DNA of 64,000 nt from an uncultured Candidatus Peribacteria bacterium (GCA_964358505.1 CAYHOS010000001.1:22947-86946), one strand, 5' to 3'; counted from the first letter of the stretch, positions 1,865-25,165 are shown. The notes: generated from the sequence alone by a model not told the origin. Translations and numbers: made by a program.

Positions 1865-1922
1865 GGGGATGTCACCCTACCTCCTTGGCGACGGAGGGGC
1901 AAGAACGTATACACTGTCCCCG

Positions 1923-2696: not shown

Positions 2697-2698
2697 CC

Positions 2699-3337: not shown

Positions 3338-4576
3338 TCACGTCACCTGCTGCCGAAGCTTCCACTCGCTACTCACCTTCTCCCACAGGTGCGGGGAGCG
3401 CCAGCTGTCCACCACGTCGTGGAACTGCCGCTCCGTGATGTCGCAGTACTCCAGGAATTCCTTGAAGTATCTCTTGGGGAACTCCCCGTCGAACTTGCGC
3501 ACCAGCGCCACGCCCTCCTCCCGCGTGATCTTGCCGTCCCGGATCTCATGCGCCGTCTCGGACGTTGCGCGGCCGATGCCGAACTTGATGAACGCCATGT
3601 AGAAATGGAATCCGTCCAGCTTGTCGTCCAGGCTGGCGTACTTGGAGTACGTCCCCTCCGTCCGCTCCGGGTTTGCCGTGAATCCCGTGTGCTGCGTGGA
3701 GTAGTAGAAGTTCTCCTGCGGATCCCAGAATTTGTAGTAGCTGTAGAAGTGGATCTCCACCTTGGTCTTCTGGATCTCCGCGAAGGGCGGCGCGAAGTAC
3801 GGAGAGAGGTCCTCGTCCGTAGCCCCGTGCTCCTTCCAGAACGCCGGCGGCTTGCCGGAGAAGTAGTGCTTGTCCTGGTCGGTGACTTCGCGCGTGGGCT
3901 TGTAGGCGTTCTTCATGTCGCCCCCGTACTCCACTTCCCCGTTCTCCCCGTAGAAGATGAGGGGGATGTTGTACTTGACGGCAACGTGCAGCGGGAAATT
4001 GTAGACGCCGTAGATGAAAGGCTGGAAGGGGTCCGCCATGTGGATGAACGACAGCTTCGTGAGAAGGCGGCTGGAACTCTTCTTGGGCGTGAAGAGGATA
4101 TGGTTGAATCCGGACTCCACGAACCGATCCAGGTTCTGCCGCCCGATGTCTGTATAGAGAAGGGGAGACCATGTGACCGTGAGCGGATGCATGCCGTACA
4201 CCTCCTTCAGCTGGTGCGCTACGTAGGAACCGTCCTTGCCGCCGCTCCCGGGGACGAGCACGTCGAAGGTGCCATCGTTCTTGCGGTGGCGGTCGCACAG
4301 TTCCCGCAGCTCCTTCTCCCGCGCGGCCCAATCCACCTGGCGCTTGTATTCCGCGTAGCGGCAGGCACTGCAGACGCCCTCCCCGTCGAACGTGATGCGG
4401 GGCCGCTGGTTGCTGATGGTGCACCTGGCGCAGAAGCGCACGGTCTCGGGGAGGCCGTACTCAACACTGGTATTGTGTCTCTGCAATGCCAAAGACGGAA
4501 GATTGTCAGGGATGGACGTATGGTACCATACCGCCATGACGCCACAGGACAACCGCTGGAAAATCTGGGACAACAT
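3338..4576 (-). CDS. N-acetyl sugar amidotransferase (PseA/WbuX/WbpG family), copy 1
   Basis: Cys-rich N-terminal 'CARC...GVCSAC' followed by PP-loop 'SGGKDGS'. Start is ambiguous (4576, TTG 4573 or 4537). The 5' end overlaps the divergent gene at 4536. Confidence 0.8.
   Translation of the reverse strand: MLSQIFQRLSCGVMAVWYHTSIPDNLPSLALQRHNTSVEYGLPETVRFCARCTISNQRPRITFDGEGVCSACRYAEYKRQVDWAAREKELRELCDRHRKNDGTFDVLVPGSGGKDGSYVAHQLKEVYGMHPLTVTWSPLLYTDIGRQNLDRFVESGFNHILFTPKKSSSRLLTKLSFIHMADPFQPFIYGVYNFPLHVAVKYNIPLIFYGENGEVEYGGDMKNAYKPTREVTDQDKHYFSGKPPAFWKEHGATDEDLSPYFAPPFAEIQKTKVEIHFYSYYKFWDPQENFYYSTQHTGFTANPERTEGTYSKYASLDDKLDGFHFYMAFIKFGIGRATSETAHEIRDGKITREEGVALVRKFDGEFPKRYFKEFLEYCDITERQFHDVVDSWRSPHLWEKVSSEWKLRQQVT
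4524..4529 (+). promoter_or_regulatory. -10-like TGGTACCAT, 6 nt upstream of ATG 4536
   Basis: Recurrent pattern. Confidence 0.45.
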
Positions 4577-5331: not shown

Positions 5332-6924
5332 CTACCCCATGGCGAGCGCCGATTGCTTCCGTAATTCTTCCGCCTGCGGGGCGGCGAGGACGGTGCCGTT
5401 GGGTTTGACTGCCTCTTGATGGATCCGCACGATCTCCTCGCATACGCGGGCAACGTGCTCGGGGCGCAAATTCGCTGAGGAGGGGAGACTGAGGCCCGTG
5501 TCGCCCAGCCGCTCGCTCACGGGCAGATGCTGACTATTGGCGTAGATCGGCTGCTTGTGAAGCGGAGGAAAGAACGGACGCGTGTCGATGCCGCGTTCCT
5601 TGAGCAGGTCCATCAGCGCGTCACGCGAATAGCCGAAGCGTTCGGCATCGATGACGATGGAATAGAGCCAGTACACGTTACGCGCCCAGGAGGCGCAAGC
5701 CGGCAGCGTCATGCCCGGCACACCCTCGAGTCCCTGCCGGTACAGGTCGGCGATCTTCAGTTTTGCATCGATAACGTCACTGATCCGTTCCATCTGTGCC
5801 AAGCCAAGAGCCGCCTGGAGGCTCGTGAGCCGATAGTTGTACCCCAGCACCGTATGCCAGTAGCGGCGTTCCGCCGACATGCCGTGGTCGCGCAGGAGGC
5901 GCATCTTCTCCGCCATGGCATCACTGTTGGTCACGACCATTCCGCCTTCGCCCGTCGTGACGATTTTGTTGCCGTAGAAGCTGAAGATGCCGATATCGCC
6001 GATGCTCCCCACGGGTTTCCCGCCGCACAGCGCACCGTGCGCCTCCGCCGCATCTTCCACCAAGGCGACCTTGTGGCGTCGTGCGATGCCCGTGAGTGCG
6101 CCCATGTCCGCCGGATGCCCGTACAAGTGCACGGGGATGATGGCGCGTGTGCGGTGCGTGATGGCCGCTTCAGCCGCTTGGGGATCGATGGTCCAGGTGA
6201 CCGGATCGCAATCCACGAAAACGGGCGTTGCGCCGGTGTATGCGACGGCGTTGGCAGTGGCGATGAACGTGAGGGAGGGGACGAGCACCTCGTCTCCCGA
6301 GCCGATGCCCAACGCCAGCAGACCCAAGTGCAGTGCCGCCGTGCCATTGGAAACGGCTATGGCATGTTTCACACCGCAGAATCTCGCGAAGATTCCTTCA
6401 AATTTCGTCACGAAGGGGCCGGCGGAAGAAATCCATCCGCTTACCACGCATTCCGTGACGTACTGCAATTCGCGCTCCCCAACGGAAGGGGAAGCCACGG
6501 GCAGGGCGATGCGTTGATCGAACGCCGCGGCGTCCACCACCCTGCCCCGTTCATCCAGGAGCGGGATGAGGCGCACCTTCTCGTGGAAAAGGCCGGCAAT
6601 GGATTCCGGAGGATCACTGATGCGTGCGGTAACGGAATCCGGCCGCGCGACCCCCAAAACGGGAGTATCCAACCCCTGCCCCCTCAGCAGAGCCCGCCGC
6701 AAGTCCCCGTCCGTCACCAACCCTGCAAAGCGGCCGTCCGCCGCCACGAGGAAAGCGGCACCCAGGCCTGCACGATCAATGGCGCGCATTGCCTCGCGGA
6801 TCGTGCCCGAAACGGGTACGCACATGGCGCGGATCTGGTCCGGAGTGAACACGGGGGGAGTATACCCGAGAACCCCCTCAGAGGGTTTCCAGAAACCGTC
6901 GTTGCGCCAGAAGCGCCTCTCCAT
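5332..6924 (-). CDS. CBS-pair domain fused to DegT/DnrJ/EryC1 sugar aminotransferase
   Basis: N-terminal region of about 130 aa has two CBS-like repeats ('GTIREAMRAID...GLVTDGDLRRALL'). C-terminal part has 'SNGTAALH' and 'FSFYGNKIVTTGEGG' (PLP Lys). Start is 6924 or 6825. Confidence 0.8.
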   Translation of the reverse strand: MERRFWRNDGFWKPSEGVLGYTPPVFTPDQIRAMCVPVSGTIREAMRAIDRAGLGAAFLVAADGRFAGLVTDGDLRRALLRGQGLDTPVLGVARPDSVTARISDPPESIAGLFHEKVRLIPLLDERGRVVDAAAFDQRIALPVASPSVGERELQYVTECVVSGWISSAGPFVTKFEGIFARFCGVKHAIAVSNGTAALHLGLLALGIGSGDEVLVPSLTFIATANAVAYTGATPVFVDCDPVTWTIDPQAAEAAITHRTRAIIPVHLYGHPADMGALTGIARRHKVALVEDAAEAHGALCGGKPVGSIGDIGIFSFYGNKIVTTGEGGMVVTNSDAMAEKMRLLRDHGMSAERRYWHTVLGYNYRLTSLQAALGLAQMERISDVIDAKLKIADLYRQGLEGVPGMTLPACASWARNVYWLYSIVIDAERFGYSRDALMDLLKERGIDTRPFFPPLHKQPIYANSQHLPVSERLGDTGLSLPSSANLRPEHVARVCEEIVRIHQEAVKPNGTVLAAPQAEELRKQSALAMG

Positions 6925-7720
6925 TCGGGAATTTCGCCTCCATGATCCAGGGGAGACTCTGGAGAGCCGGCGTGCGGAGCACCCCGGTGATCCAGCTGCC
7001 CTCCTCCACCGGGCGGTGCTGGTCGGCGCTCCCGTCGTTGTCGTGGAGGTGGAACGCGCCGATGTACGGTGCAAGGACTGCGATGAATTCCATGCGGTTG
7101 AATCCGTAGGTCGCCGCGGAGACATTCAGGTGCCCCGTATCGACCAGGATGCCGAGGAAAGGGGAGGCGATCATTCCAAAGAATTCCTGGAACTCATCCG
7201 TGGTCTGGAGCAGGAGCGTCCCCATGTTGTGACGTTCGCACACGTTGTTCTCCACGAGCAGCCGCACCCCCGCCCGCTCCGCGAAGGGGAGAAGTCCACG
7301 GATACTTTCCACGAAACGACGCAGTGCTTCCTGCCCCGCATCCGGCCTGTCCGGCTTGGGGAAGATGAATGCCAGTGTAGGATCGGTGACGAAGCCTGCG
7401 TGGACGGAGTACAGGGGGGCGCCGAGCGCGGCGCTGAGGGAGAGAGCACGTCGGACGAGCGCCATGCTCCTCTCCCGGATGCGCGCATCCACCGACGCCA
7501 GGTTGAGGACGAAAGGTTCCGGCGGAGGCGGGAAGTAATTGTGGAGGAGATAGGGACCGGGCCCCAGCAGCTGCGACGTACATGCGCCCTCGATGGTGAC
7601 CTTGTCGCCCAACTCCACCGCTTCCATACCGAGCTCCCGGTACAGCCGCAGACGATCGGTGAGCGGCTGCGCGCCGCCCAGGCACGCGGTGGAAGCATAG
7701 ATGGAGGAATGCGGCTTCAT
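6878..7720 (-). CDS. sugar phosphate isomerase/epimerase (xylose-isomerase-like TIM barrel)
   Basis: Carries 'LLVENN' and 'HLHDNDG' metal-site motifs. ATG 7720 overlaps the upstream stop (ATGA). Confidence 0.65.
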   Translation of the reverse strand: MKPHSSIYASTACLGGAQPLTDRLRLYRELGMEAVELGDKVTIEGACTSQLLGPGPYLLHNYFPPPPEPFVLNLASVDARIRERSMALVRRALSLSAALGAPLYSVHAGFVTDPTLAFIFPKPDRPDAGQEALRRFVESIRGLLPFAERAGVRLLVENNVCERHNMGTLLLQTTDEFQEFFGMIASPFLGILVDTGHLNVSAATYGFNRMEFIAVLAPYIGAFHLHDNDGSADQHRPVEEGSWITGVLRTPALQSLPWIMEAKFPNGEALLAQRRFLETL

Positions 7721-8490
7721 CGGTGAACGGAAAGGAGACGGTCGTACTCTTCCATGCTCGGTACCGGATACTTCTTCCCCCGGAGTTCGACCATGGCCGG
7801 CGGGTAGGGCGGAAAGTCGAGCGCGCGGATGAAGCAGCTGACGCGCCCGCGGTCCCACGAGGGATCGATCCTGCCGCCATACGGCACGGCGCGCGGATGG
7901 TAACTGCCGCCGGGCGCCTGCGGCGTCCCGCGTTCTCCCCGGAGCGCCAGCGCAACGGCCTCGGGAAACACGGCGAGTCCTTCGGCGATCTGGCGGTGGA
8001 AGAGCGTGTATGCCGAATCGTCCTTGCCGATGGGGATGATGCGCTGGAGCAGGATATTCCCCTCGTCGAACTTCTCGGTCATCCAGTGGTAGGAAAAACC
8101 CGTCACGTCATCGCCCCCGAGGATCGCCCACGGGACGGAGAAGCAGCCGCGGTGCTTGGGCAGGAGCGACGGATGGAGATTGACGCACCCACCCGTGGGG
8201 ATGGCGAGGAGGTCGCCGGGGATGCGGTCGCGGTAGTGCAGGCTGAAGAGCAGCCGGGGCCGCCGTTCCTGCAGCCATTGCTTGGCAGCGGACTCCTTCG
8301 CCGCCGACTGGCAGACGCTGATGCCGTTGTCCGCCGCGCAAGCGAGGAGCGGGCGGTTGCGTTCGTCGTCGCCGTGCGTGAGGAGGCCAACCTGTTCCGG
8401 ACGGTAGCCGAGTGCGGACAGGTGGCCGATGGCGAGGATGCCGGGCGCACCGTACGCTGCGAGTATCAATGATATGGAACGGTCTGTCAT
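7717..8490 (-). CDS. formyltransferase (Fmt-like sugar N-formyltransferase candidate)
   Basis: Canonical 'NLHPSLLPKHRG' formyltransferase motif. ATGA overlap with the upstream gene at 8487-8490. Confidence 0.75.
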   Translation of the reverse strand: MTDRSISLILAAYGAPGILAIGHLSALGYRPEQVGLLTHGDDERNRPLLACAADNGISVCQSAAKESAAKQWLQERRPRLLFSLHYRDRIPGDLLAIPTGGCVNLHPSLLPKHRGCFSVPWAILGGDDVTGFSYHWMTEKFDEGNILLQRIIPIGKDDSAYTLFHRQIAEGLAVFPEAVALALRGERGTPQAPGGSYHPRAVPYGGRIDPSWDRGRVSCFIRALDFPPYPPAMVELRGKKYPVPSMEEYDRLLSVHR

Positions 8491-9200
8491 GCGGGGAGAA
8501 CGCGTAACGCGGCTTCCAAGAAAGGCATATCGTCGAGAGTGTCCAGTTCGCGGCTTCGCTCCAAAGGCGCAACGTAGCCGCGGACATCGCCGGCGAAGAG
8601 CGCGCCGTTCACGAGTGCCGAAGAGACGCGAACCGCGTCCACGAGGCCGGAGAGCATATACACCGGAGGACAGAGCTGGCGCCGGGGGAAGGAACTTTCG
8701 TCGTGGCCGGGGATGAGCGGCGTGAGCCGCCCCTCCGCATCCATCCCTTTCATCCAGTACGGGTGCTGTTCCACCGTACACACCGAACGGACGGCATCCG
8801 CGCCCGTGGAAGAGAGGAGGCCCAACGCGCCCCGAATGTCTTCCGCTGTACGGAGCGGCGACGTAGGACGGAGCCAGAGGACCACATCCGGCTTCCACTC
8901 CTCCCGTTCGGCGAACCACTCGATGGCATGTCGGAAGACGGGGAAATCGGGAGTGTCGTCTGCAGCGATGGCGGAAGGACGCAGGAACGGGACTTCGGCC
9001 CCTTCGCGACGTGCAATGTCGGCAATTTCCCCGTCATCCGTGGAGACGACGATGCGGCTGCACGCGCCGGACGCTTTGGCGACGGCAATGGTCCACGCGA
9101 TGAGCGGCTTTCCCCCCAGGGGAAGGATGTTTTTACGCGGCACACTCTTGGAACCCCCGCGGGCGGGGATGAGCGCCAGGACTGCGGAAGCGGAAGCCAT
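8487..9200 (-). CDS. neuA: acylneuraminate-type cytidylyltransferase (CMP-NulO synthetase)
   Basis: N-terminus 'ALIPARGGSKSVPRKN' is typical of the CTP_transf_3 family. TACAAT box 9 nt upstream of ATG 9200. Confidence 0.8.
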   Translation of the reverse strand: MASASAVLALIPARGGSKSVPRKNILPLGGKPLIAWTIAVAKASGACSRIVVSTDDGEIADIARREGAEVPFLRPSAIAADDTPDFPVFRHAIEWFAEREEWKPDVVLWLRPTSPLRTAEDIRGALGLLSSTGADAVRSVCTVEQHPYWMKGMDAEGRLTPLIPGHDESSFPRRQLCPPVYMLSGLVDAVRVSSALVNGALFAGDVRGYVAPLERSRELDTLDDMPFLEAALRVLPA

Positions 9201-10305: not shown

Positions 10306-11826
10306 TTACGATATCTCCTTCCACGACGGGGCGGAAGCGACCCCTGTGATCTCATCCTGCAACGCAGCCAGTTCTTTCCCTATCGCGTTTTTCAGCGCCT
10401 TCACGTGCTCTTCCTCTGATTTGCCGGTGACAAGAAGGAACCATCGGTCCACGACACCCATCATGCACGTCTCCTCCATCGCCTTGAGGTAGAGATGCGT
10501 GCTCCAGGGCGTCGGCGCCTCCCTGCGCTCGAATACGGCGCGCACGGCCTCTGCGCAGTCCCGCGCCGTTCGGATGGGGAAGACCCCGCGGGCGTACTGG
10601 TAGAACCATGAGCCGAAGAGGAAGACCTGCTTCCCTCGGAAGAGCGCCTCGAAGCCGGCGGATCCCGTGATCGTCGCCACAGCCGTACAGCGCTCGCGAA
10701 GTATGAACGTATCCACATCTTTGGGAATGAGCCTCACCTTCTCCAGTTCCAGAAAATCCCTGTAGTACTCCGTGTTGCGGGAAAGCCATCCGCCCCGGCG
10801 CGGGTGCTCCTTGACGTAGAGAAGGACGCCATCGGGGAGCGTCGCATTGAGGAGGCGCGCCGCCAAAATCTGGTCCGCGTACACGCCCCCCAGGGGGACG
10901 GTGCTCAATTCGGGTTGGGAGTGCAGCGGGAAGTATACGAAGGGCTTCGTGAGGTCCGGGACCGATGCATGGGCATTATAGAAATGCTCCGTGCGGCGGA
11001 CGGCGCGCCATCGCTGCAGCGCTTCCCAAGCACGCGCCCACCCGGCGGGCGTGAACAGGATGCGCAGCGCAGGCAGGAAGAGGGCGAAGGGACGGTACAG
11101 GGCCAGCGTGCGCAGATGATACCCATGGGTAGGGAGGGGGATGGACATGAGCACCGGGGGCTTCCCCGCGACGGAGAGGAGATCCCGCTCGTAAGAGGCG
11201 AACGGCTCCCGCAGGGGGACGCTTTCCGGAGCGCCTGTGGGACGCTCGGCCAGGAGGACGCGGTACCGTTCGCCGATCTGCGGGGTGACATGCCGCACAT
11301 CCCTGCTTGCGCAAGCGACATCGCGCAGGGTGGTGATGTCAAAGAACAGGACGGGGATCCCGCGCTGCCTGCAGAGGTAATAGATGACGATGTCCGGGAT
11401 CTCATGCGGGGTCCAGGCGGAGAGGTACAAGTTGATCCTCCGGCGCGTGAGGTAATCGTTCCAGAACTGCAAGTGCCGCAGGTACCAGAGTTTGCGCGTG
11501 AGGTACGGGACAGCATGCTTGTCCTCCAGCCGCGTGACGACGGCCATGAACACCGCTTCACACTCCCTCATCTGCAGGATCAATTCCTCATCGAGGGGGG
11601 CGATGCCGTTCCAGTCCACGCCCGCGTAATGGGCTTTGCGGATTTCGCTGCTCGCGAAGAACTCCTGTTGCGCCGCGGGGATCCCCGCGAACGGCGGGAG
11701 TTCCCCCGTCGAGATATCCGCGCAGAACGCGAACGGATGCGCTTGCATCACCCCCTCGAGCGCCCGCCGCGTGAAGGCAAGCCCGAACCGCCCGACGATG
11801 GCACGGATGGGGATAGGAGGGGTCAC
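10306..11826 (-). CDS. KpsS/Capsule_synth-like glycosyltransferase (candidate NulO transferase), paralogue A
   Basis: 'FPLHSQPELST', 'LYVKEHP' and 'AVATITGSAGFEAL' match the KpsS layout. GTG 11826 chosen because TATACT lies 7 nt upstream and the N-terminal length then matches the paralogue. Confidence 0.6.
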   Translation of the reverse strand: MTPPIPIRAIVGRFGLAFTRRALEGVMQAHPFAFCADISTGELPPFAGIPAAQQEFFASSEIRKAHYAGVDWNGIAPLDEELILQMRECEAVFMAVVTRLEDKHAVPYLTRKLWYLRHLQFWNDYLTRRRINLYLSAWTPHEIPDIVIYYLCRQRGIPVLFFDITTLRDVACASRDVRHVTPQIGERYRVLLAERPTGAPESVPLREPFASYERDLLSVAGKPPVLMSIPLPTHGYHLRTLALYRPFALFLPALRILFTPAGWARAWEALQRWRAVRRTEHFYNAHASVPDLTKPFVYFPLHSQPELSTVPLGGVYADQILAARLLNATLPDGVLLYVKEHPRRGGWLSRNTEYYRDFLELEKVRLIPKDVDTFILRERCTAVATITGSAGFEALFRGKQVFLFGSWFYQYARGVFPIRTARDCAEAVRAVFERREAPTPWSTHLYLKAMEETCMMGVVDRWFLLVTGKSEEEHVKALKNAIGKELAALQDEITGVASAPSWKEIS

Positions 11827-11833
11827 GAGGGTG

Positions 11834-11839
11834 AGTATA
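11834..11839 (-). promoter_or_regulatory. -10-like TATACT, 7 nt upstream of GTG 11826
   Basis: Part of the recurrent TANNNT-N6-10-start pattern. Confidence 0.45.
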
Positions 11840-11914
11840 CCAAACGTCTGCGGAACAAGGCCGGAGTTTTCCCGCAGGCCACTGCAGCATCCTTGAACTG
11901 GGGGGACCAATGTG

Positions 11915-11920
11915 TATCAT
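11915..11920 (+). promoter_or_regulatory. extended -10-like TGTGTATCAT, 6 nt upstream of ATG 11927
   Basis: Recurrent TANNNT-N6-10-start pattern. Confidence 0.5.
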
Positions 11921-11926
11921 CACGCC

Positions 11927-13411
11927 ATGCGGAAGCCCAATGTGATCATCAAGGCGTTCGACGGGGACTCGACGGACGCCGTGACTCTGGAGAGGGCGTT
12001 TAGGGACATCCCGCTGGGCACCTGCATCACCATCGGGGAGGCCGTCCCGTGGGAGACGAGGATCGCCGCGGAGAAGCGCATCGAGATGCGGGCGGAGCGC
12101 GTGCGGATCTGCGAGTACCCCGGTGTGGACTGGAACGCGATATTGCCGCTCGACGAGGGGATCATCGAGGACATGCGGCATGCGGAGGCGGTGGTGATGC
12201 AGATGGTCGAGCGCTATGCGCGGTACATGGAGCGATACAGGATTGCGGGGGATATTCCGTACCATGAGCGCCGGCGGCAGTACTTCGCGCACCTGCGGTA
12301 CTGGAACCACGTGCTGGAGACGGAACGCATCGACCTCTTCCTCATGAACCACATGCCGCACCAGTGCTACGATTACGTCCTGTACTATCTCTGCAAGCGC
12401 AAGAACATTCCCGTTCTCTACATGAACCGTTTCTTCGCCATGGATGGGATGTACATTTCGGAGAATTGGGAACACCCCGCCCCTGACCTGCAGGCCGCAT
12501 TCCGGAGGATACGCGAGGAGTACGCGGATCCGCAGCGGCCGATCCCTCTCTCCAAGAATTACGAATACTACTTCTCATTCTACAGAAAGAAGACACCCGA
12601 GAAGCCGTGGTACATGGAGGAGAACATCTACACGAGGCCGAACTTCGTGCGGAAGTGGTGGCGCAAAGGCCTCAAGGTGCTTCGCAGGGAACCGCTGCGC
12701 TTCACTGCCTCCATGCTTTCCCCGGCCTTCTGGTCGCGGAAACTGGGTCAGCACCGGGCGATCGCATTCTACAAACAGCACACGCAGCAGCCCGATCTCT
12801 CCCAACCGTACGTGTACGTCCCCCTCCATCTGCAGCCGGAGGCTACCACCATCCCCCTCGCAGGGGCGTTCGTGGACCAGGAACGCGTCGTACAGCTCCT
12901 GGCCGCCCATCTCCCTCCCGGGATCCGCCTCTACGTAAAGGAGCACCCGGCGCAAGGGGAGGAATGGCGCAGCGAGGATTTCTACAAGACGCTCCTCAGC
13001 ATCCCCTCCGTCACGCTCATCCCCAAGGAAGCGGACACGTATGCGCTCCTCGACCATTGCATCGCCGTGGCTTCCTGCGCGGGCACCGTGCTCTTCGAGG
13101 CGAGCATCCGCCAGAAGCCTTCCTTCATGTTCGGCCACGACATCTGGCAGTACGGGCCGGGCGTGCACTGCATACGCACGTCCCAGGATTGCCGCGCGGC
13201 TGTGGAGGATATCCTGAACAACAGGGCATCGCACTCCGTGCGGGACGTGCGCCTCTACCTCAAAGCCTTCGACGAAAGCGCCACCCCTTTTCCCGGTCCG
13301 ACAGAAAGCCCCGTGGACAATGCCACGGATGAGGAGAAGGCGGTGAACGTGGGGGCGCTCCTCGAGCGGCATATCCGGAGGGTTTTGAATCTTCCGGCGC
13401 CGCAGTCCTGA
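11927..13411 (+). CDS. KpsS/Capsule_synth-like glycosyltransferase, paralogue B
   Basis: 'VPLHLQPEATT', 'LYVKEHP' and 'AVASCAGTVLFEA'. Alignable along its length to 10306..11826. TGTGTATCAT extended -10 lies 6 nt upstream of the ATG. Confidence 0.6.
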   Translation: MRKPNVIIKAFDGDSTDAVTLERAFRDIPLGTCITIGEAVPWETRIAAEKRIEMRAERVRICEYPGVDWNAILPLDEGIIEDMRHAEAVVMQMVERYARYMERYRIAGDIPYHERRRQYFAHLRYWNHVLETERIDLFLMNHMPHQCYDYVLYYLCKRKNIPVLYMNRFFAMDGMYISENWEHPAPDLQAAFRRIREEYADPQRPIPLSKNYEYYFSFYRKKTPEKPWYMEENIYTRPNFVRKWWRKGLKVLRREPLRFTASMLSPAFWSRKLGQHRAIAFYKQHTQQPDLSQPYVYVPLHLQPEATTIPLAGAFVDQERVVQLLAAHLPPGIRLYVKEHPAQGEEWRSEDFYKTLLSIPSVTLIPKEADTYALLDHCIAVASCAGTVLFEASIRQKPSFMFGHDIWQYGPGVHCIRTSQDCRAAVEDILNNRASHSVRDVRLYLKAFDESATPFPGPTESPVDNATDEEKAVNVGALLERHIRRVLNLPAPQS

Positions 13412-13424
13412 TCGCGCGGACCCA

Positions 13425-14735
13425 TTACGTCAGCCGCTTGAAGCCCGATTGTGCAACGGGGCCTTTGAGCTTCTCCGGGAGGGAACCGTCCTGGAGCGCG
13501 CGGGCGATGGCATCAAAAGCTTCTCCCGATGCGCCGAGGTACCCCGCCACATGTTCTTCCGTATGGGCGAACGTGGCGTAGAACTTGTCCGGGGCCAGGT
13601 ACCCTCGCTCCAGCATCAGCTGCGTGAAGAGCGTCTTGGGGGCTCCCCCCAGCGCCGAGTGGATGTGAAAGTGGGCGAGCGGCTCGATGCCCGTCACGTC
13701 CACCTTCAGGCTCGCTGCGTCCGCCGACCGCTTCCACCCTTCTTGGACCAGTCGCCCGATGCGCATCAGATGCTCATGAACCCGTGCGCGCCCGAACTTC
13801 CGGATGGTCGCCACCGCGGCCGCGGGTCCGATGCGTTCCGTCCAGTTGGTGGAACTGATGAAGGTGCTCTGCGCCGCTTCCATCACCGGGCGCCGCCCGA
13901 TGACGGCGGCGATGGGATAACCGTTGCCAAGCGCCTTGGCGAACACGGCGATGTCAGGCTCCACCCCCAGCGCCAGGTGCGCGCCGCCATGGGTGATGCG
14001 GAAACCGGACGTGACCTCGTCGAATACCAGCACGGCGCCGATGGCCGTCGCAATCTCCCGCACACGTTGAAGGAACCCGTTCTCGGGCCCGGAATCGCGC
14101 AGCGGCTCCATGACGATGGCGCCGATCTCCTTGCCATGCCCGGCGACGATGCGCTCCAGTTCCTCGATCTTGTTGTACCGGAAGGGGAGCATGGTCCCCT
14201 TGAGTCCCCGCGGCACGCCCTTCGGCTCCAGACCCGGGAGCAAGTGCCCGTCGAGCGCGCCGTCATCGGCAAGGTTCGCCGCCAGGTACCAGTCGTGCCA
14301 GCCGTGGTACCCGCAGAACGCCACTTTCTCCCGCCCCGCATACGCCCGCGCAATGCGGACGGCCATCGCCATGGCCTCCCCGCCGCCGCGCGCGAACCGC
14401 GCCATGGAAGACCAGGGATGGAGGCCGGTGAGGAGTTCCGCAAGTTCCACCTCTTCGGGACAATTCAGGGTAGAGGCCGTGCCGGCATCGATAGCCGCGC
14501 GGACAGCGGCATCCACGTCGGGGTCGGCGGCACCCAGCACGCAGGCGCCGATGGCGTTGTACCCCATGTCCACGTACCGGTTACCGTCCAGGTCCCACAC
14601 CTCCGCCCCGCGGACACGGCTGTAGTATGCGGGCCATTGGTCGGGCAGGTGGAGTTCCGGCCTCTTCGAGAGGAGCTGCGTCCCCCCGGGAATGAGGGTT
14701 TTTGCCTTGCGGTAAAGATCTTGGCCTTTCCCCAT
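13425..14735 (-). CDS. class III aminotransferase (glutamate-1-semialdehyde 2,1-aminomutase-like)
   Basis: 436-aa ORF with 'LIPGGTQLLSKR' and 'FDEVTSGFR', the HemL-family layout. TACAAT box 9 nt upstream. Confidence 0.75.
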   Translation of the reverse strand: MGKGQDLYRKAKTLIPGGTQLLSKRPELHLPDQWPAYYSRVRGAEVWDLDGNRYVDMGYNAIGACVLGAADPDVDAAVRAAIDAGTASTLNCPEEVELAELLTGLHPWSSMARFARGGGEAMAMAVRIARAYAGREKVAFCGYHGWHDWYLAANLADDGALDGHLLPGLEPKGVPRGLKGTMLPFRYNKIEELERIVAGHGKEIGAIVMEPLRDSGPENGFLQRVREIATAIGAVLVFDEVTSGFRITHGGAHLALGVEPDIAVFAKALGNGYPIAAVIGRRPVMEAAQSTFISSTNWTERIGPAAAVATIRKFGRARVHEHLMRIGRLVQEGWKRSADAASLKVDVTGIEPLAHFHIHSALGGAPKTLFTQLMLERGYLAPDKFYATFAHTEEHVAGYLGASGEAFDAIARALQDGSLPEKLKGPVAQSGFKRLT

Positions 14736-14832: not shown

Positions 14833-15804
14833 ATGGATGCGTTGAATGACGCTTCAATCCTCATCACCGGCGGCACGGGTTCATTTGGACGGAAGTTCTG
14901 CCAGACTCTCCTGCACGACTACCGCCCTAAAAAGCTCATCGTCTTCAGCAGGGATGAGCTGAAGCAGCACACTATGCGTCATGAGGGGTTCGACGTCGAG
15001 CCGATGCGCTACTTCATCGGGGATGTCCGCGACCGCGATCGCCTGCGACGCGCGATGTCGGGTGTCGACTACGTGATCCATACCGCCGCGCTCAAGCATG
15101 TCTCCTCGTGCGAGTACAACCCGCTGGAGGCGGTGGAGACGAACATCGGCGGTGCGCGCAACGTCATCGAAGCGGCGCTCGACGCCCACGTGAAGAAGGT
15201 CATTGCCCTCAGCACGGACAAGGCGGTAAACCCAGTCAACCTCTACGGCGCCACCAAGCTCGTCTCCGAGAAGGTCTTCTCCCAGGGCAACGCCTACAGC
15301 GGCATGGGAAACACCCGGTTCTCCTGCGTCCGGTACGGGAACGTCGTGGGGAGCAGCGGGAGCGTGGTACCCATCTTCGTCCGGCAACGCGCACAGGGCG
15401 CAATCACCATCACGGACGAGCGGATGACGCGCTTCTGGATTTCCCTGGAAGAGGCGGTCCGCTTCGTCATCCGGTGCCTGGACACCATGCGGGGAGGGGA
15501 AGTCTTCGTTCCCAAGATCCCCAGCATGCAGGTCGTAGACCTCGCGGACGCCCTCGCGCCGGGATGCACAAAGACCTTCACGGGGATCCGGCCGGGCGAG
15601 AAGCTGCACGAAACCCTCCTCTCCGCCGACGAGGCACGGCATGCGGTGGAGCGGGAGGATATGTTCGTCATCGAACCGGAGGAGCCCTCCTGGGATTACC
15701 ACAAGTGGGAAGGGCCGCCCCCTGCGGAGGGATTCCTGTACGCGAGCAATACGAACACCGTGTGGCTCACGGCAGAAGACTTGAAGGCCAAGATCGGCGC
15801 ATGA
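14833..15804 (+). CDS. pseB: UDP-N-acetylglucosamine 4,6-dehydratase (inverting)
   Basis: Near full-length resemblance to H. pylori FlaA1/PseB: 'ILITGGTGSFG', 'FSRDELKQ', 'YGATKL', 'RYGNVVGSSGSVVP'. Confidence 0.9.
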   Translation: MDALNDASILITGGTGSFGRKFCQTLLHDYRPKKLIVFSRDELKQHTMRHEGFDVEPMRYFIGDVRDRDRLRRAMSGVDYVIHTAALKHVSSCEYNPLEAVETNIGGARNVIEAALDAHVKKVIALSTDKAVNPVNLYGATKLVSEKVFSQGNAYSGMGNTRFSCVRYGNVVGSSGSVVPIFVRQRAQGAITITDERMTRFWISLEEAVRFVIRCLDTMRGGEVFVPKIPSMQVVDLADALAPGCTKTFTGIRPGEKLHETLLSADEARHAVEREDMFVIEPEEPSWDYHKWEGPPPAEGFLYASNTNTVWLTAEDLKAKIGA

Positions 15805-15844
15805 ACCGGTTGCCTGGGGAATCTTCTTCGGGCACAGTGCAGCC

Positions 15845-16399
15845 ATGAGAACCGCACCGGGATTCTCGCTCTTTGGGAAGCGCATCATCCTGCGCCCGCT
15901 CACGGATGACGATGCCACTGAGGCGTATGCGGGATGGCTCAATGATCCCGAGGTCAACCGGTACCTCGAAACGCGCAGCGCCGGCAGGGATGATGTCCGC
16001 CGTTTCATCCGCGAGAAGAACGAGAGGGAGGATGCGCTCCTCCTGGGAGTATTCTGGAACGAACCCTCTGCGCACATCGGCACGATCAAGCTTGAACCCA
16101 TTGACCGGCAAGGGAGAACGGCCGTGATCGGCCTTCTCATTGGCGATAAGGCCTACTGGGGAAAAGGCGCCGGGACGGAGGCTACGAACCTGCTGACGGA
16201 GTACGCATTCGGGGAATGGGGCCTGCAGGACATCACGCTCGGCGTGATTGCCCAGAACGCTCCCGCGATCCGCGTCTATGAGAAATGCGGATTCACCGTT
16301 GACCGCGTCGAGAAGGATGCTGTAAACCATGACGGAACTCTGTTCGACCGGATCGTCATGCACAAACGTTCCCCCGCCCCCCTCCTCTCCCCCGCATGA
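15845..16399 (+). CDS. GNAT N-acetyltransferase (RimJ/RimL-like)
   Basis: 184-aa ORF with acetyl-CoA-binding region 'YWGKGAGTEA' and 'NAPAIRVYEKCGF'. Confidence 0.75.
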   Translation: MRTAPGFSLFGKRIILRPLTDDDATEAYAGWLNDPEVNRYLETRSAGRDDVRRFIREKNEREDALLLGVFWNEPSAHIGTIKLEPIDRQGRTAVIGLLIGDKAYWGKGAGTEATNLLTEYAFGEWGLQDITLGVIAQNAPAIRVYEKCGFTVDRVEKDAVNHDGTLFDRIVMHKRSPAPLLSPA

Positions 16400-17616
16400 T
16401 GACCCCATCATCCTCTCCCGCACCGGACGCCAGCCGCGTGGTTTCGGACCCCCTTCTGCTCAAACGATGCACGCGGTGTGTGATGCCCGAGACGCAGGAG
16501 GTGATCTCCTTCGATGCGAACGGCGTGTGCGCGACCTGCCGCAACGTGGAGTTCAAGCAGAAGAATGTTGACTGGGAGAAGAAGCGGAAGGCGTTCGCTG
16601 ACCTCCTGGACCGGTACCGCGGGAAAGGCGACTACGACTGCATCGTCCCCTTTAGCGGGGGAAAGGATTCCACCTTCACCGCGTACTCCCTGGTGCGAGA
16701 CTGGAACCTGAAGCCGCTCGTGGTGAGCTTCGACCACCATCTCATGCGTCCCCGCGTACTGGCCAACAGGGAACGGGCGCTCCGCCGCCTGGGAGTGGAT
16801 TTCCTCGGTTACCGCCCGGACTGGTCATTGGTGAAGAAACTGATGCGGATCGCGCTCGAGCGGAAGGGTGACATCCTGTGGTACCAGCACACCGGCATCT
16901 TCTCCTACCCCATGCAAATCGCGGTGAAGTACAAGGTGCCTCTCGTCATCTGGGGTGAACCGTCCTCGGAGTACGCCAGCTACTACGACTACGAGCAGGA
17001 AGAGGAGGTGGACGAGCGGCGGTTCAATATGTTCGTGAACCTTGGGATAACGGCGCAGGACATGCTCGGCATGCTCAATGAGCCGACGTCACCGGTGCGT
17101 GGCAATGTCCCCATCACCCTGCGGGACATGCAACCGTATACCTTTCCGTCCCGCAAGGATCTGGCCGCCATCGACTGCCGTTCCGTTTGCCTCGGGAGCT
17201 TCGTGCCGTGGGACGTGAAGAGCCATGTGAAGATCATCCAGCGGGAACTGGGATGGGAAGGGGATCCGGTAGAAGGTGTTCCTCCTTCCTATAACTACGA
17301 GAAGATTGAGGACATGATGCAGGGGGTGCAGGACTACCTGAAGTTCATCAAGCGGGGCTACGGGCGCATGAGCCACCTCGCGTCCATCGACATACGGAAC
17401 GGCCGGATGACCCGTACCGAAGCCATGGAGTTGATCCAGGAGTGGGAAGGGTTGCGGCCCGCAAGCCTGGATGTCCTGCTGGGATGGCTCAAGATATCCG
17501 AGGAGCAGTTCTACGCCATCGCCGATCGCCTGCGGGTGGCGCCCTGGAAGCACGACCCGCGACTCAGCCGTCCGGGTCCGCCACTGCCGGACCAGAAGTT
17601 CTGGATCACGGACTGA
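16396..17616 (+). CDS. N-acetyl sugar amidotransferase (PseA/WbuX family), copy 2
   Basis: 'CTRCVM...GVCATC' zinc ribbon plus PP-loop 'SGGKDST'. ATGA overlap with the GNAT stop. Confidence 0.85.
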   Translation: MMTPSSSPAPDASRVVSDPLLLKRCTRCVMPETQEVISFDANGVCATCRNVEFKQKNVDWEKKRKAFADLLDRYRGKGDYDCIVPFSGGKDSTFTAYSLVRDWNLKPLVVSFDHHLMRPRVLANRERALRRLGVDFLGYRPDWSLVKKLMRIALERKGDILWYQHTGIFSYPMQIAVKYKVPLVIWGEPSSEYASYYDYEQEEEVDERRFNMFVNLGITAQDMLGMLNEPTSPVRGNVPITLRDMQPYTFPSRKDLAAIDCRSVCLGSFVPWDVKSHVKIIQRELGWEGDPVEGVPPSYNYEKIEDMMQGVQDYLKFIKRGYGRMSHLASIDIRNGRMTRTEAMELIQEWEGLRPASLDVLLGWLKISEEQFYAIADRLRVAPWKHDPRLSRPGPPLPDQKFWITD

Positions 17617-17676
17617 CCCCCCGCGCAGAGAGGAAATGTGGGGAGGAAGAAGGAGAAAGATGGTATCGTCTCCCCG

Positions 17677-18321
17677 ATGATTGCCGTCATCGACTACGGC
17701 ATGGGAAATTTACGCTCCATCGCAAAGGCGCTGGAGCATGTGGGTGCGGAAGTAACCGTCACCCGGGATCCGGCGGTCATCCGATCCGCAGAGCGTCTCG
17801 TGCTGCCCGGCGTGGGGGCATTCGGGAACGGCATGGGGAACCTGCGCTCCTTTGAGCTCCTTCCTGTACTGGAAGAGGAGGTACTGGGGAAGAAGAAGCC
17901 GTTCTGGGGCATCTGCCTCGGGATGCAGCTCCTCGCACGGAGCAGTGAGGAATTCGGAGAGCATCAGGGATTGGGGTGGATTCCCGCCATCGTGAAGAGG
18001 TTCTCATTCCCCGCAGGTTCCCCCCTCAAAATCCCCCACGTAGGATGGAACACCGTCACGTTCGCGCGTGAACACCCGGTGACCGCGGGAAGGGAGAAAG
18101 CGGACTTCTACTTCGTCCACAGTTACTACGTGGCACCGGACGGGGACGGCCTGACGGCGGGGACGTGTGAATACGGGACTCGGTTTGCGGCATGTGTCAC
18201 ACGGGACAACATCTTCGCTACGCAGTTCCATCCCGAGAAGAGCCAGCAGGACGGCCTGCGTCTGCTCCGACAGTTCTGCCATTGGCAACCTGAATCGGCC
18301 CCCTCACCCCCGCATGCTTAA
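17677..18321 (+). CDS. HisH-like glutamine amidotransferase subunit, copy 2
   Basis: 'IAVIDYGMGNLRS', 'GICLGMQLL' and 'QFHPEKS'. Alternative GTG start at 17638. Confidence 0.85.
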   Translation: MIAVIDYGMGNLRSIAKALEHVGAEVTVTRDPAVIRSAERLVLPGVGAFGNGMGNLRSFELLPVLEEEVLGKKKPFWGICLGMQLLARSSEEFGEHQGLGWIPAIVKRFSFPAGSPLKIPHVGWNTVTFAREHPVTAGREKADFYFVHSYYVAPDGDGLTAGTCEYGTRFAACVTRDNIFATQFHPEKSQQDGLRLLRQFCHWQPESAPSPPHA

Positions 18322-19072
18322 GAAGCGCATCATCCCGTCGCTCCTGCTGAAGGACAACCGCATGGTGAAGTCCGTCCGCTTCGGCGCGTACCGCGACACG
18401 GGCCACCCCATTACTGCCGCCCGCATCTACGATGCGCAGCGGGTAGACGAGCTCGTGGTCCTCGATATTTCCGCGAGCCTCGAGGGACGGACGACGTTCT
18501 TGGACACCGTCGTGCAGATGTCCGAGGAGTGCTTCATGCCGCTCTGCGTCGGCGGAGGCATCCGCAGCATCGAGGACATCCGGATCCTCCTCAGCAAGGG
18601 GGCTGACAAGGTAGCCGTCAATACTGCGGCAGTCGAAGACGAGGGCTTTGTGGAACGCGCGGCACGCATGTTCGGCTGCTCCACCATCGTCGTGTCCATC
18701 GACGTGCGGCAGGGGGAACAGGATGCCTATGAGGTCTTCACCCATGGCGGGACCCAGCCCGCCGGACGGGACCCGATCTCCTGGGCGCAAAAGGCGGAAC
18801 AATTGGGGGCGGGGGAAATCTTCCTCACCTCCATCGACCGCGACGGAACGATGGCCGGCCTCGATATCCTGCTCATCCGCTCCGTCGTGGAGGCGGTCAC
18901 CATCCCCGTCATCGCGTCGGGCGGCGTGGGAACCCTGGAAGATTTCCGCATCGGGATGGAGGAGGGCGGGGCGAGCGCCGTGAGCGCCGCGAGCATCTTC
19001 CACTTTACGGACCAGAGCCCCATCAAGGCGCGCAAGTACCTCGTGGATCGCGGCGTGAACGTGCGCGCCTGA
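18314..19072 (+). CDS. HisF-like cyclase subunit, copy 2
   Basis: Internal ATG of ORF 18167..19072. Carries 'RIIPSLLLKD', 'LCVGGGI' and 'ASGGVG'. Overlaps the hisH-like gene by 8 nt. Confidence 0.85.
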   Translation: MLKKRIIPSLLLKDNRMVKSVRFGAYRDTGHPITAARIYDAQRVDELVVLDISASLEGRTTFLDTVVQMSEECFMPLCVGGGIRSIEDIRILLSKGADKVAVNTAAVEDEGFVERAARMFGCSTIVVSIDVRQGEQDAYEVFTHGGTQPAGRDPISWAQKAEQLGAGEIFLTSIDRDGTMAGLDILLIRSVVEAVTIPVIASGGVGTLEDFRIGMEEGGASAVSAASIFHFTDQSPIKARKYLVDRGVNVRA

Positions 19073-19100
19073 AGCCTGTGATGTGCTACAGTGGCCTCGT

Positions 19101-20291
19101 ATGAGTGACTTGGCGCTTCACGGAGGCCACCCTGTGCGTGCGAAACTTCTTCCCTATGCCCGCCAATCGGTGCGCGAGGAGGACATTGCAGCCGTCACCG
19201 ACGTGCTGCGTTCCGACTGGCTCACGACGGGGCCGAACGTGGCGGAGTTCGAGCGGGAGTTCGCGGCAGCCACCGGAGCACGCGAAGCTGTGGCAGTGAG
19301 CAACGGCACCGCCGCGCTTCATACGGCGCTCCATGGCATCGATATACGGCCCGGGGACGAAGTGGTCGTACCGGCGATGACGTTCGCCGCCACCGCCAAC
19401 GCCGCCCTCTTCCGCGGGGCGAAACCGGTGTTCGCCGACGTGGATGCAACGACACTCCTCATCGATCCTGAGGATGCCGAGAAGCGCATCACGGAGAAGA
19501 CGAGAGCGATCATCGCCGTCGACTACGCCGGACAACCCTGCGACTACCAGTCGCTCCAGACGCTCGCCCGTCGCCGGAAGCTCAGGCTCGTCGCCGATGC
19601 CTGCCATGCGCTGGGAGGGGCATACCGGGGGCGTCCCGCAGGTTCGCTCGCGGACTGCAGTACTTTCAGTTTCCATCCGGTGAAACCGCTGGCTACGGGG
19701 GAAGGGGGAATGATCACCACGGATGCTGCGGACATGGCGACGCGCATGCGGCAGTTCCGCAACCACTGCATGACGAACGACCATCGGGAACGCCAGGAAC
19801 GGGGGGCATGGTTTTACGAAATCACAGACCTGGGGTACAACTACCGGCTTACGGACATCCAGTGTGCATTGGGGCGAAGCCAGTTACGCTCTGTGCCCGC
19901 ATGGACGGAACGAAGGAGGGAGCTTGCCGCCCGGTACGACGGGGCGCTGGCAGGGATGAACGGTGCCGCCCCCCTGAGTGTGCGTGACGATGCGGAACAT
20001 GCCTACCATCTCTACGTCATCCGGCTAGACCTCGCGCGCCTCTCCGCGGACCGAAACCAGATCTACCAGGCCATGCGCGCGGAGAATATCGGCGTCAATG
20101 TGCACTACATCCCCGTCCATCTCCATCCCTTCTATCGCACGGCGCTTGGGACCAAACCCGGCCTTTGCCCCGTGGCGGAGGCGGCGTATGAACGCATCCT
20201 CTCCCTCCCCCTCTTCGCAGGCATGACGGACCAGGATGCGCGAGACGTCATCACCGCGCTAGAGAAAGTGCTTTCCCATTACTCAGCATAA
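19101..20291 (+). CDS. pseC: UDP-4-amino-4,6-dideoxy-N-acetyl-beta-L-altrosamine transaminase
   Basis: DegT family with 'SNGTAALH' and 'FSFHPVKPLATGEGG'. Position in the pse cluster supports the call. Confidence 0.85.
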   Translation: MSDLALHGGHPVRAKLLPYARQSVREEDIAAVTDVLRSDWLTTGPNVAEFEREFAAATGAREAVAVSNGTAALHTALHGIDIRPGDEVVVPAMTFAATANAALFRGAKPVFADVDATTLLIDPEDAEKRITEKTRAIIAVDYAGQPCDYQSLQTLARRRKLRLVADACHALGGAYRGRPAGSLADCSTFSFHPVKPLATGEGGMITTDAADMATRMRQFRNHCMTNDHRERQERGAWFYEITDLGYNYRLTDIQCALGRSQLRSVPAWTERRRELAARYDGALAGMNGAAPLSVRDDAEHAYHLYVIRLDLARLSADRNQIYQAMRAENIGVNVHYIPVHLHPFYRTALGTKPGLCPVAEAAYERILSLPLFAGMTDQDARDVITALEKVLSHYSA

Positions 20292-20294
20292 GCC

Positions 20295-21278
20295 ATGCGT
20301 CACGCGCCGCCGCACCGGATTCTCATCCTGGGAGGAGGTTCCATCGGCTCCCGCCACGCACGGAACCTGTTGGCGTGTGGCGCAGGGGAGGTGATGGTCT
20401 TTGAGCCTGATGCGGCGCGAGCGGAACGCCTGAAGAGCGAACCGGGCGTGCGCGTGTTCCAGGGCGAACAGGAAGCGTTCCAATCCGCAAAGCCGGATCT
20501 CGTCTTCGTTTGCTCACCCACAGCCCTCCACGTCTCCCAAGCCCTCCGGGCAGTGGAAGAGGGTGCCCACGTCTTTATCGAAAAGCCGCTCTCGCACACC
20601 ATGGAAAGCGTGCGGGAGTTGCTGGAAAAGGCGCGAACCGGGAAGCGGGTGGTGATGGTGGGGTGCAACATGCGGTTCCACCCCGGCCATGCGGCCATCC
20701 ACCGCTTCCTCGCGGAAGGGGCGATCGGGTCGCCCGTCGCTGCCCGCATTTCCTACGGCGGCTACCTGCCCTCCTGGCGCCCCGGGCAGGACTACCGGAA
20801 GAGCTACAGCGCATCGCCCGAGCAGGGCGGCGCCGTCCTCGATTGTATCCACGAGATCGACCTCGCGCTCTGGCACTTCGGCCCGGCCGAGGTCTCCGGA
20901 TCGGCCGTGCTCCCCGCCACCGCCATCGGCCTGGAAACCGACGGCCTGGCGGAAATTCTCCTGCGCCACGCGTCGGGGGTCCTCAGCAGCGTCCACGTGA
21001 ACTTCATCCAGCGGGAATTCCGGAGGACCTGCAGCGTGATCGGGACGGATGGGTCGCTCACATGGGACTGTACGCGGGGGAGTGTGGAGCGGTTCGGGAC
21101 GGACGGGAACCTGGCCGAAACGATCGCACAGCCGGCCGGCTGGGAAACGGACACGATGTACCGGGATGAGCTGCGACATTTCCTGGCTGCGGCGGAGGAA
21201 GGGAAGATCCCGACCGGCTCGCTGCAAGAGGCATCCGCCGCCCTCGCCGTCGCCCTCGCCGTCCGGGAAAGCCCATGA
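20295..21278 (+). CDS. Gfo/Idh/MocA family oxidoreductase
   Basis: N-terminal Rossmann 'ILILGGGSIGSRH' and 'EKPL' motif. Confidence 0.75.
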   Translation: MRHAPPHRILILGGGSIGSRHARNLLACGAGEVMVFEPDAARAERLKSEPGVRVFQGEQEAFQSAKPDLVFVCSPTALHVSQALRAVEEGAHVFIEKPLSHTMESVRELLEKARTGKRVVMVGCNMRFHPGHAAIHRFLAEGAIGSPVAARISYGGYLPSWRPGQDYRKSYSASPEQGGAVLDCIHEIDLALWHFGPAEVSGSAVLPATAIGLETDGLAEILLRHASGVLSSVHVNFIQREFRRTCSVIGTDGSLTWDCTRGSVERFGTDGNLAETIAQPAGWETDTMYRDELRHFLAAAEEGKIPTGSLQEASAALAVALAVRESP

Positions 21279-24239: not shown

Positions 24240-24242
24240 AGG

Positions 24243-25139: not shown

Positions 25140-25148
25140 GGGAAGACC

Positions 25149-25154: not shown

Positions 25155-25165
25155 GCGCACTGTGC

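Follow-up and report, generated by a model that had tools for sequence, protein, structure and literature searches.

Background

Which enzymes attach the sugars made by two nonulosonic acid (NulO) pathways that are encoded side by side in one small genome? The question is raised by a 64,000-nt stretch of DNA from an uncultured Candidatus Peribacteria bacterium (GCA_964358505.1, CAYHOS010000001.1:22947-86946), a member of the Candidate Phyla Radiation (CPR), the whole of which is called the window below. In it two genes on opposite strands, here named A and B, lie between a module for pseudaminic acid (Pse) and a module for a second NulO. To our knowledge transferases for sugars of the pseudaminic and legionaminic (Leg) type are scarce, and only a handful have been characterised, namely KpsS1, a pair from Tannerella, Maf and FlmG. 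Kenyon and colleagues (2015) linked the Capsule_synth (Pfam PF05159) proteins Gtr59, KpsS1 and KpsS2 to NulO modules in several phyla (PMC4487303), and KpsS1 of Acinetobacter baumannii is a retaining Pse5Ac7Ac transferase that founds glycosyltransferase (GT) family GT118, as cited in PMC12887879. A first-pass annotation of the window, which noted that Capsule_synth proteins had been proposed as Pse transferases in Acinetobacter K loci and put forward A and B as one dedicated transferase for each NulO, started from a sound premise, since strengthened by the biochemistry of KpsS1.

In this paper we examine A and B through their sequence families, predicted structures, conserved motifs and gene neighbourhoods in related genomes. 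The sequences indicate that both are, with good probability, NulO transferases, and the neighbourhoods tip the balance slightly towards B using Pse and A using the second NulO.

The gene pair

The two genes are as follows.

10306-11826, minus strand: gene A, 506 aa from GTG 11826; Capsule_synth-family, GT-B-like; candidate transferase for the second (non-Pse) NulO
11927-13411, plus strand: gene B, 494 aa from ATG 11927; paralogue of A; candidate pseudaminic-acid transferase

GC content at third codon positions (GC3) in these two long opposite-strand open reading frames (10306-13411) is 0.80 for A and 0.84 for B, in a window with a GC content of 63%. Such values are typical of the real genes of the window, and the codon bias of A and B therefore fits that of genuine genes. 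The start of A was placed at GTG 11826 because a sequence conserved at the N-termini of orthologues, M..PIRAIVGRFS, is encoded upstream of ATG 11748, and on the same ground ATG 11748 was rejected as the start. The resulting protein of 506 aa agrees with the lengths of the orthologues (494-511 aa); the public gene call, 480 aa from ATG 11748, appears to be 26 residues short at the N-terminus. The proteins can be aligned with one another from the N-terminus onward, as the first-pass annotation had it: a BLASTP alignment that begins near both N-termini covers 437 aa at 36% identity (E 2e-78), a similarity far beyond chance.

Family membership and predicted fold

Both proteins score above the 20-bit gathering threshold of PF05159 in a hidden Markov model scan, A at 40.1 bits and B, marginally, at 21.8 bits, and nearly all orthologues carry a precomputed PF05159 assignment. 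No domain is listed for B in its precomputed Pfam record, in spite of the hmmscan score just quoted. Among PDB sequences, A as a single sequence matches KpsC at E 2e-5. When profiles of the two families were searched against solved structures, the A family reached KpsC (GT107) at 1e-9 and WbbB (GT99) at 0.02, and the B family reached KpsC at 8e-7. No other glycosyl-related structure was significant in these profile searches; the sole other structure below E 0.01, an iodotyrosine deiodinase found with the B profile only, is unrelated. Comparison by hhalign gave a probability of 96.8% against the N-terminal module of KpsC (KpsC-N) of Escherichia coli UTI89 and 84.9% against KpsS, over about 85 residues that span the HP motif and the GFEAL block and stop short of the nucleophile loop.

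AlphaFold2 models of A and B (mean predicted local distance difference test scores 92.2 and 93.0, predicted template modelling scores 0.91 and 0.92) are confidently predicted and GT-B-like, with two Rossmann-like domains and a helical insertion. The model of A is of the 480-aa form and so begins after the first 26 residues, which hold the first beta-strand. Foldseek places KpsC first for A (E 2e-6, template modelling (TM) score 0.41-0.46 on the target), accompanied by WbbB, and the two have the highest TM-scores in the list. [quoted passage not shown] Judged on these models, the fold evidence is supportive for A and ambiguous for B.

One other family was considered and rejected. The BFO_1060 family of Tannerella (NCBIfam NF046086, TagB-type) gives B 21.1 bits against a cutoff of 200 and does not match A.

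Conserved motifs

The motifs on which the comparison with known enzymes turns are located at the following positions.

10909-10923, minus strand: HSQPE loop of A, His302-Glu306 in 506-aa numbering (276-280 in the 480-aa model)
12827-12841, plus strand: HLQPE loop of B, His301-Glu305, at the same position as HSQPE of A
10801-10806, minus strand: His-Pro of YVKEHP in A, His341 in 506-aa numbering
12944-12949, plus strand: His-Pro of YVKEHP in B, His340-Pro341

The loop reads PLHSQPELST in A and PLHLQPEATT in B, LYVKEHP is present in both, and the conserved C-terminal block is AVATITGSAGFEA in A, which contains TGSAGFEA, and AVASCAGTVLFEA in B, which contains AGTVLFEA. All three elements quoted in the first-pass annotation are thus real, the pattern A(V/S)xxxGTxxFEA that it gave for the last being approximate only. 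Its description of PLHxQPExT as the layout of KpsS was mistaken, for KpsS and KpsC carry QxxxD at the position where the A/B family has HxQPE. The Gln, Pro and Glu of HxQPE are invariant in our alignment, and the motif is kept in all 14 family clusters, which come from many phyla and also share PH...D, LHxQPE.T..P, YVKEHP and TxTGTxGWEAL..KP..FG without change.

In KpsC the covalent nucleophile is the Asp of an invariant QxxxD, and the enzyme has, besides, the HP motif and a Glu that serves as base (PMC10148158). The QxxxD motifs of E. coli read QTFND, QVEDD and QVYND (across KpsS, KpsC-N and the C-terminal module KpsC-C), with the Asp 34-38 residues before the histidine of HP. In A and B the HxQPE motif lies six residues past the first strand of the C-terminal domain and its Glu 35 residues before HP. 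An alignment made with MAFFT L-INS-i brings HxQPE into register with the QxxxD of KpsS, KpsC-N and KpsC-C, so that Gln is replaced by His and Asp by Glu. A and B lack the QxxxD that marks GT107 and keep a carboxylate, that of Glu, at its place. They do have the HP motif of that family, their YVKEHP aligning with the KVHP, KPHP and KHHP of KpsC and KpsS; this motif is common to KpsC, WbbB and the CMP-sialic-acid transferases (PMC10148158).

Genomic context

As had been stated, the pair is located between two NulO modules, with NeuB-family synthases and CTP_transf_3 cytidylyltransferases on both sides.

812-1864, minus strand: NeuB2, synthase of the second NulO; NeuB_NnaB 382 bits (cutoff 400), PseI 235 bits; 35% identical to the PseI of the window
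3338-4576, minus strand, and 1863-3334, plus strand: upstream WbuX/HisH/HisF set
5332-8490, minus strand: rest of the upstream operon, comprising a CBS and LegC-family aminotransferase, a TIM-barrel (AP_endonuc_2) protein and a formyltransferase
5332-7125, minus strand: CBS and LegC-family aminotransferase, LegC 368 bits, with an N-terminal CBS pair
7717-8490, minus strand: upstream formyltransferase, part of the second NulO module
8487-9200, minus strand: CTP1, cytidylyltransferase (CTP_transf_3); best match PseF at 140 bits, below cutoff; conserved partner of the A clade
14833-26940, plus strand: Pse module, comprising PseB, GNAT, WbuX, HisH, HisF, PseC, an oxidoreductase, CTP2, a PseG-PseH fusion, a formyltransferase, a minus-strand methyltransferase and PseI
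16396-19072, plus strand: downstream WbuX/HisH/HisF set
21275-22057, plus strand: CTP2, cytidylyltransferase (CTP_transf_3)
23541-24239, plus strand: downstream formyltransferase
25630-26940, plus strand: PseI, NeuB-family synthase

The Pse pathway is complete, four of its enzymes scoring above the NCBIfam equivalog cutoffs (PseB 471, PseC 440, PseG, which is fused to GNAT, 216 and PseI 438 bits). The second module stands mostly on the minus strand behind A and runs from CTP1 through the formyltransferase, the TIM-barrel protein, the LegC-family aminotransferase and WbuX/HisH/HisF to NeuB2. It has no recognisable 4,6-dehydratase or 2-epimerase. With two complete WbuX/HisH/HisF amidotransferase sets in the window, each module having its own, and two formyltransferases, both NulOs are probably N-acetimidoylated, N-formylated or both.

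Gene picking by GC3 missed NeuB2 and CTP1 because longer opposite-strand open reading frames overlap them; both were recovered with tblastn and public gene calls, which also corrected a mis-called frame at 1419-2696. Between B and PseB lies a class-III (glutamate-1-semialdehyde aminomutase-like) aminotransferase (13425-14735, minus strand). Its homologues, 55-73% identical, recur beside NulO genes at five other loci (L005, L008, L009, L017 and L057), and it may make an unusual N-acyl substituent.

Distribution and synteny of relatives

One genome per GTDB species was scanned, which gave a comparative set of 73 loci. Close homologues of A and B all come from Candidatus Peribacteraceae/Peregrinibacteria (CPR/Patescibacteria), and the A and B types fall into two clades of their own, with 48 and 37 members respectively, every one from Peribacteraceae. 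The clades are 34% identical to each other, as distant as either is from cyanobacterial, myxobacterial or spirochaete homologues, and since the distance between them equals that across phyla, the split is ancient. A recent tandem duplication can be dismissed for the same reason.

Proximity to NulO genes is common in the family: a NeuB homologue occurs within 10 kb of the family gene in 42 of the 51 loci that are at least 12 kb long, across phyla. PseI is found in 16 of the 31 Peribacteraceae loci that hold both A and B, and B is the nearer of the two to it in 14 of these; another synthase is found in 18 of the 31, with A the nearer in 17, counts that partly reflect a fixed gene order (module, A, B, module). 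In 11 of the PseI-bearing loci B and PseI share a strand and are no more than 200 nt apart, with B closing a unit that runs from PseB through PseI to B. A is often terminal in a same-strand unit of cytidylyltransferase, NeuB-like synthase and A, with which one further locus agrees, and CTP1 of the window belongs to a cluster of cytidylyltransferases (Ct7) that adjoins A in at least 18 loci. In L039 and L009, of the lineage nearest to the window, A instead leads the second operon, as it does in the window. The usual arrangement of A and B among relatives is convergent, and their head-to-head order in the window is a rearrangement.

A further arrangement, present in many Peribacteraceae, is exemplified by locus L079 (7455-9966), in which a gene of the A clade follows a 347-aa cytidylyltransferase and a 494-aa fusion of NeuB with a cupin (Lyx_isomer-like). 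This synthase is distinct from both PseI and NeuB2 and may make a different ulosonic acid. In Parcubacteria and Saccharibacteria (L073, L074) independent tandem pairs adjoin Pse genes.

The family as a whole is large, with 2,444 representatives at 50% identity (E up to 1e-30). Its members in Legionella, Leptospira and Magnetospirillum are annotated merely as capsule biosynthesis proteins, and when the Piscirickettsia homologue was used to seed a further homology search, no relative with a characterised function or an informative name came up. The sequence of the window itself occurs in 0.2-um metagenomes from Hainich groundwater, as identical contigs.

Proposed function and mechanism

Taking these lines of evidence together, we think it reasonably likely that the two proteins are transferases of the PF05159 kind which depend on CMP-NulO, with B working for the Pse pathway and A for the second one. 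They would be soluble or peripheral cytoplasmic glycosyltransferases of the Capsule_synth superfamily, GT-B-like in the manner of the retaining ulosonic-acid transferases KpsC/KpsS (GT107), WbbB (GT99) and KpsS1 (GT118). A and B would each take a CMP-activated NulO from the neighbouring module and add it to a growing, probably lipid-linked, surface glycan. The donor of B would be a CMP-Pse derivative from the downstream Pse operon, and that of A the CMP-NulO product of the upstream NeuB2/CTP1 module. The acceptor would be built by the many GT2 and GT4 enzymes of the surrounding island and exported by the MsbA/PglK-like ABC transporter at 29008-30822.

By analogy with KpsC, CMP would be bound by the C-terminal Rossmann domain through YVKEHP and TGxxGFEA, and the histidine of the HP motif would protonate the leaving phosphate. 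We infer that the invariant Glu of HxQPE (Glu306 of A, Glu305 of B), standing in place of the Asp of QxxxD, could form a covalent sugar-enzyme adduct, which an acceptor hydroxyl held in the N-terminal domain would then resolve, so that a KpsC-like double displacement gives net retention. At the position that the base would be expected to occupy, a manual alignment shows IPVLFFD in A, His in most of the A clade and Asn in B.

Evidence against, and alternative explanations

Several observations weigh against this assignment. Similarity to characterised enzymes is limited to the 85 or so residues of the nucleotide-binding region, and the PF05159 score of B barely exceeds the cutoff. In the structural comparison of B the 2-epimerases rank first (E 1e-8) and WbbB only 35th; all TM-scores are low, 0.2-0.46, and the global root-mean-square deviation is high for every match. 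The equivalence of the Glu to the KpsC nucleophile rests on one MAFFT alignment together with spacing and topology, and not on superposition, and a manual alignment, itself weak, found no conserved acidic residue to match the KpsC base Glu66 (LEDGF). LegB, LegG and NeuC for the second pathway were not found in the window or in the 10 kb upstream, where the search turned up RmlA/RmlB, Gmd and heptose genes instead. The synteny has its exceptions, besides the dependence of the proximity counts on gene order: in five species (L010, L036, L041, L048, L060) A abuts Pse genes and no gene B lies within 10 kb, in two loci (L011, L017) the operon of B carries a NeuB2-type synthase, and in Piscirickettsia (L065) two copies of the family flank one Pse operon. 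The runs in which the sequence is found are all DNA metagenomes and give no RNA evidence. The proposal of one transferase per NulO is accordingly borne out in part, by clades that segregate with different NulO operons across the 73 loci, and has exceptions in the loci in which A stands beside PseI without B nearby and in the two copies around a single operon in Piscirickettsia.

Some of those exceptions speak for a reading in which A and B are both NulO transferases and differ in acceptor or linkage, not in donor, either as initiator and extender or as makers of two linkages of one NulO. KpsS and KpsC are an earlier example of two PF05159 enzymes that act one after the other; the lipopolysaccharide (LPS) of Piscirickettsia, with its two family members beside a single Pse operon, is reported to contain diacetylated Pse (Pse5Ac7Ac); several species keep A alone beside a Pse operon; and homologues of A and B also occur in Legionella pneumophila, whose O-antigen is a homopolymer of legionaminic acid. 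The A and B clades stand consistently at the ends of different NulO operons, which speaks for a difference in donor, and their 34% identity, equal to that with other phyla, fits a long functional separation, though such a separation could equally well be one of acceptor. On balance we regard this explanation as unlikely, though it deserves to be taken seriously. It is less probable still, and in our judgement quite improbable, that A and B transfer some other sugar, be it Kdo, 3-deoxynonulosonic acid (Kdn), another ulosonic acid or a non-ulosonic donor, and that their NulO neighbourhood is a coincidence of a large island. The structurally characterised relatives are all Kdo transferases, the partner synthase of A in many relatives is the NeuB-cupin fusion, which may not make a 5,7-diamino NulO, and pathways for dTDP-glucose, GDP-mannose and heptose are likewise encoded in the island; yet the window showed no KdsA-type gene, association with NulO genes recurs in the long loci across phyla, and the HP motif points to a CMP-linked donor.

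The structural matches of B, and the presence of epimerases in the list for A too, could also mean that the proteins are not transferases and are instead GT-B-fold sugar-nucleotide 2-epimerases or hydrolases that fill a missing step, LegG-like for example, the more so as the search for a LegG or NeuC homologue to complete the upstream module found none. Such matches are expected, however, because epimerases and GT-B transferases share a general fold. Neither A nor B has a Pfam match to Epimerase_2 at E up to 1, PF05159 being the sole Pfam family found, and no epimerase appears among the PDB sequence matches; the sequence profiles reach KpsC and WbbB and not epimerases; the TM-scores of KpsC and WbbB exceed those of the epimerases; and the Pse operon to which B is tied has PseG already and does not require a 2-epimerase. 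We therefore consider an epimerase or hydrolase role very improbable and retain the assignment of A and B as NulO transferases.

The divergent intergenic region

The spacer between the two genes was described in the first-pass annotation as a head-to-head region of 100 nt with back-to-back TATACT and TATCAT boxes.

11827-11926, both strands: divergent intergenic region between GTG 11826 and ATG 11927
11839-11834, minus strand: TATACT box, A side
11893-11920, plus strand: TTGAAC-16-TATCAT (TATCAT at 11915-11920), B side; promoter function predicted

With the start of A at GTG 11826 the gap is exactly 100 nt. Both boxes are present, and a full sigma-70-like promoter is called on the B side alone, with 9 of 12 matches against 0.1 such sites expected by chance. 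Both -10-like boxes end 6-7 nt ahead of the start codons (GTG 11826 and ATG 11927), and no Shine-Dalgarno sequence is visible before the start of A or B. If the boxes function, their position suggests that the A and B mRNAs are leaderless.

The surrounding glycan island

Apart from these modules the window is made up of a large glycan island with many GT2 and GT4 genes, GT-C-like proteins, methyltransferases and the following exporter.

29008-30822: MsbA/PglK-like ABC transporter

GC content along the window is 60-68%, and at least 64 kb (more than 74 kb with the upstream flank) is almost wholly devoted to glycan biosynthesis. For a Peribacteraceae genome this is a high proportion; one related contig on record measures 1.38 Mb. 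Three open reading frames, all on the minus strand, have no Pfam or NCBIfam match (44942-47467, 841 aa; 32053-33687, 544 aa; 27089-28096, 335 aa), and a fourth (59467-62490, minus strand, 1007 aa) has only a weak match to PMT_2. These four large frames are candidate polymerases, oligosaccharyltransferases or surface proteins. A FrhB/FdhB-like protein, of the F420 hydrogenase beta type, is encoded within the polysaccharide locus at 34987-36654 (plus strand). The 10 kb upstream of the window carry an ADP-heptose pathway (L002, 6383-9924), consisting of an HldE-like kinase, an adenylyltransferase and a GmhB-like phosphatase, as well as a GT9 heptosyltransferase-like gene, Gmd and a TviB-like dehydrogenase. 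These genes are of LPS-core type, in a lineage thought to be without an outer membrane.

Significance and comparison with known systems

If A and B act as proposed, a family of thousands of proteins would gain a function, the homologues in Legionella, Leptospira and Piscirickettsia included, and the change of Asp to Glu would widen the catalytic repertoire of retaining ulosonic-acid transferases. It would also follow that over 64 kb of Peribacteraceae genomes, which measure about 1-1.4 Mb, is given over to a surface glycan with two NulOs, a finding that bears on the interactions of CPR cells with hosts, phages and grazers. If they do not, A and B stay ordinary capsule biosynthesis homologues. 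As a more speculative and rather doubtful extension, this large lineage (at least 2,400 clusters at 50% identity) might merit a CAZy family of its own, of NulO transferases that use the Glu of HxQPE as covalent nucleophile and not the Asp of QxxxD as in GT99 and GT107, with two ancient members decorating the surface of a genome-reduced CPR cell with two sialic-acid-like sugars.

The closest characterised systems are KpsC and KpsS (GT107), the retaining beta-Kdo transferases that make the linkers of group 2 capsules. Like A and B they belong to PF05159, have a two-domain GT-B-like fold, the HP motif and the GFEAL block, and place a carboxylate six residues past the first strand of the C-terminal domain at a similar spacing from the HP histidine. 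They differ in having QxxxD, with Asp, where A and B have HxQPE, with Glu, and in their base, Glu66 (LEDGF), which is without a conserved counterpart in A and B. KpsC modules are of about 320 aa, whereas A and B, at about 500 aa, have C-terminal helices and an extra helical segment, at approximately residues 183-260 in the model of A; the donor is Kdo in the former and presumably a 9-carbon NulO in the latter; and, unlike the KpsC/KpsS systems, the CPR host of A and B has no group 2 capsule export genes (kpsMTED) that could be seen. The N-terminal module of WbbB (GT99), likewise a retaining beta-Kdo transferase, is among the top structural matches of A, and its weak profile match (E 0.02) covers the region from HP to GxEA; it shows a negligible sequence identity of 12-13%, has Asp232 as nucleophile and uses Kdo as donor.

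In function the precedent for NulO transfer within this superfamily is KpsS1, together with the predicted Gtr59 and KpsS2, which share with A and B both PF05159 and a position beside a NulO module. KpsS1 is reported to be 30% identical to E. coli KpsS, whereas the similarity of A and B to KpsS is local and covers only about 85 residues, a comparison made, on the side of KpsS1, by its published description. The idea of PF05159 NulO transferases is thus not new, and to judge from the sequences A and B would be a sensible extension of a known kind of enzyme. The pair Tanf_01245 and TFUB4_00887 of Tannerella forsythia (BFO_1060 family) embodies the concept proposed for A and B: these are genetically proven Pse and Leg transferases, encoded beside a NulO locus and bearing an HP motif, which are specific to strain or pathway and not interchangeable between Pse and Leg. 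They are TagB-like, and A and B are not members of their family. The flagellin NulO transferases Maf and FlmG are described as using CMP-Pse or CMP-Leg, donors of the kind proposed here; their folds and families are unrelated to A and B, which show no such Pfam match, and the window showed no flagellin gene. Set against these systems, what is new here is a distinct and very large HxQPE lineage, with a conserved pairing of A and B in Peribacteraceae, and the presence of two NulO modules in one CPR genome, of which a limited check of the CPR literature found no mention.

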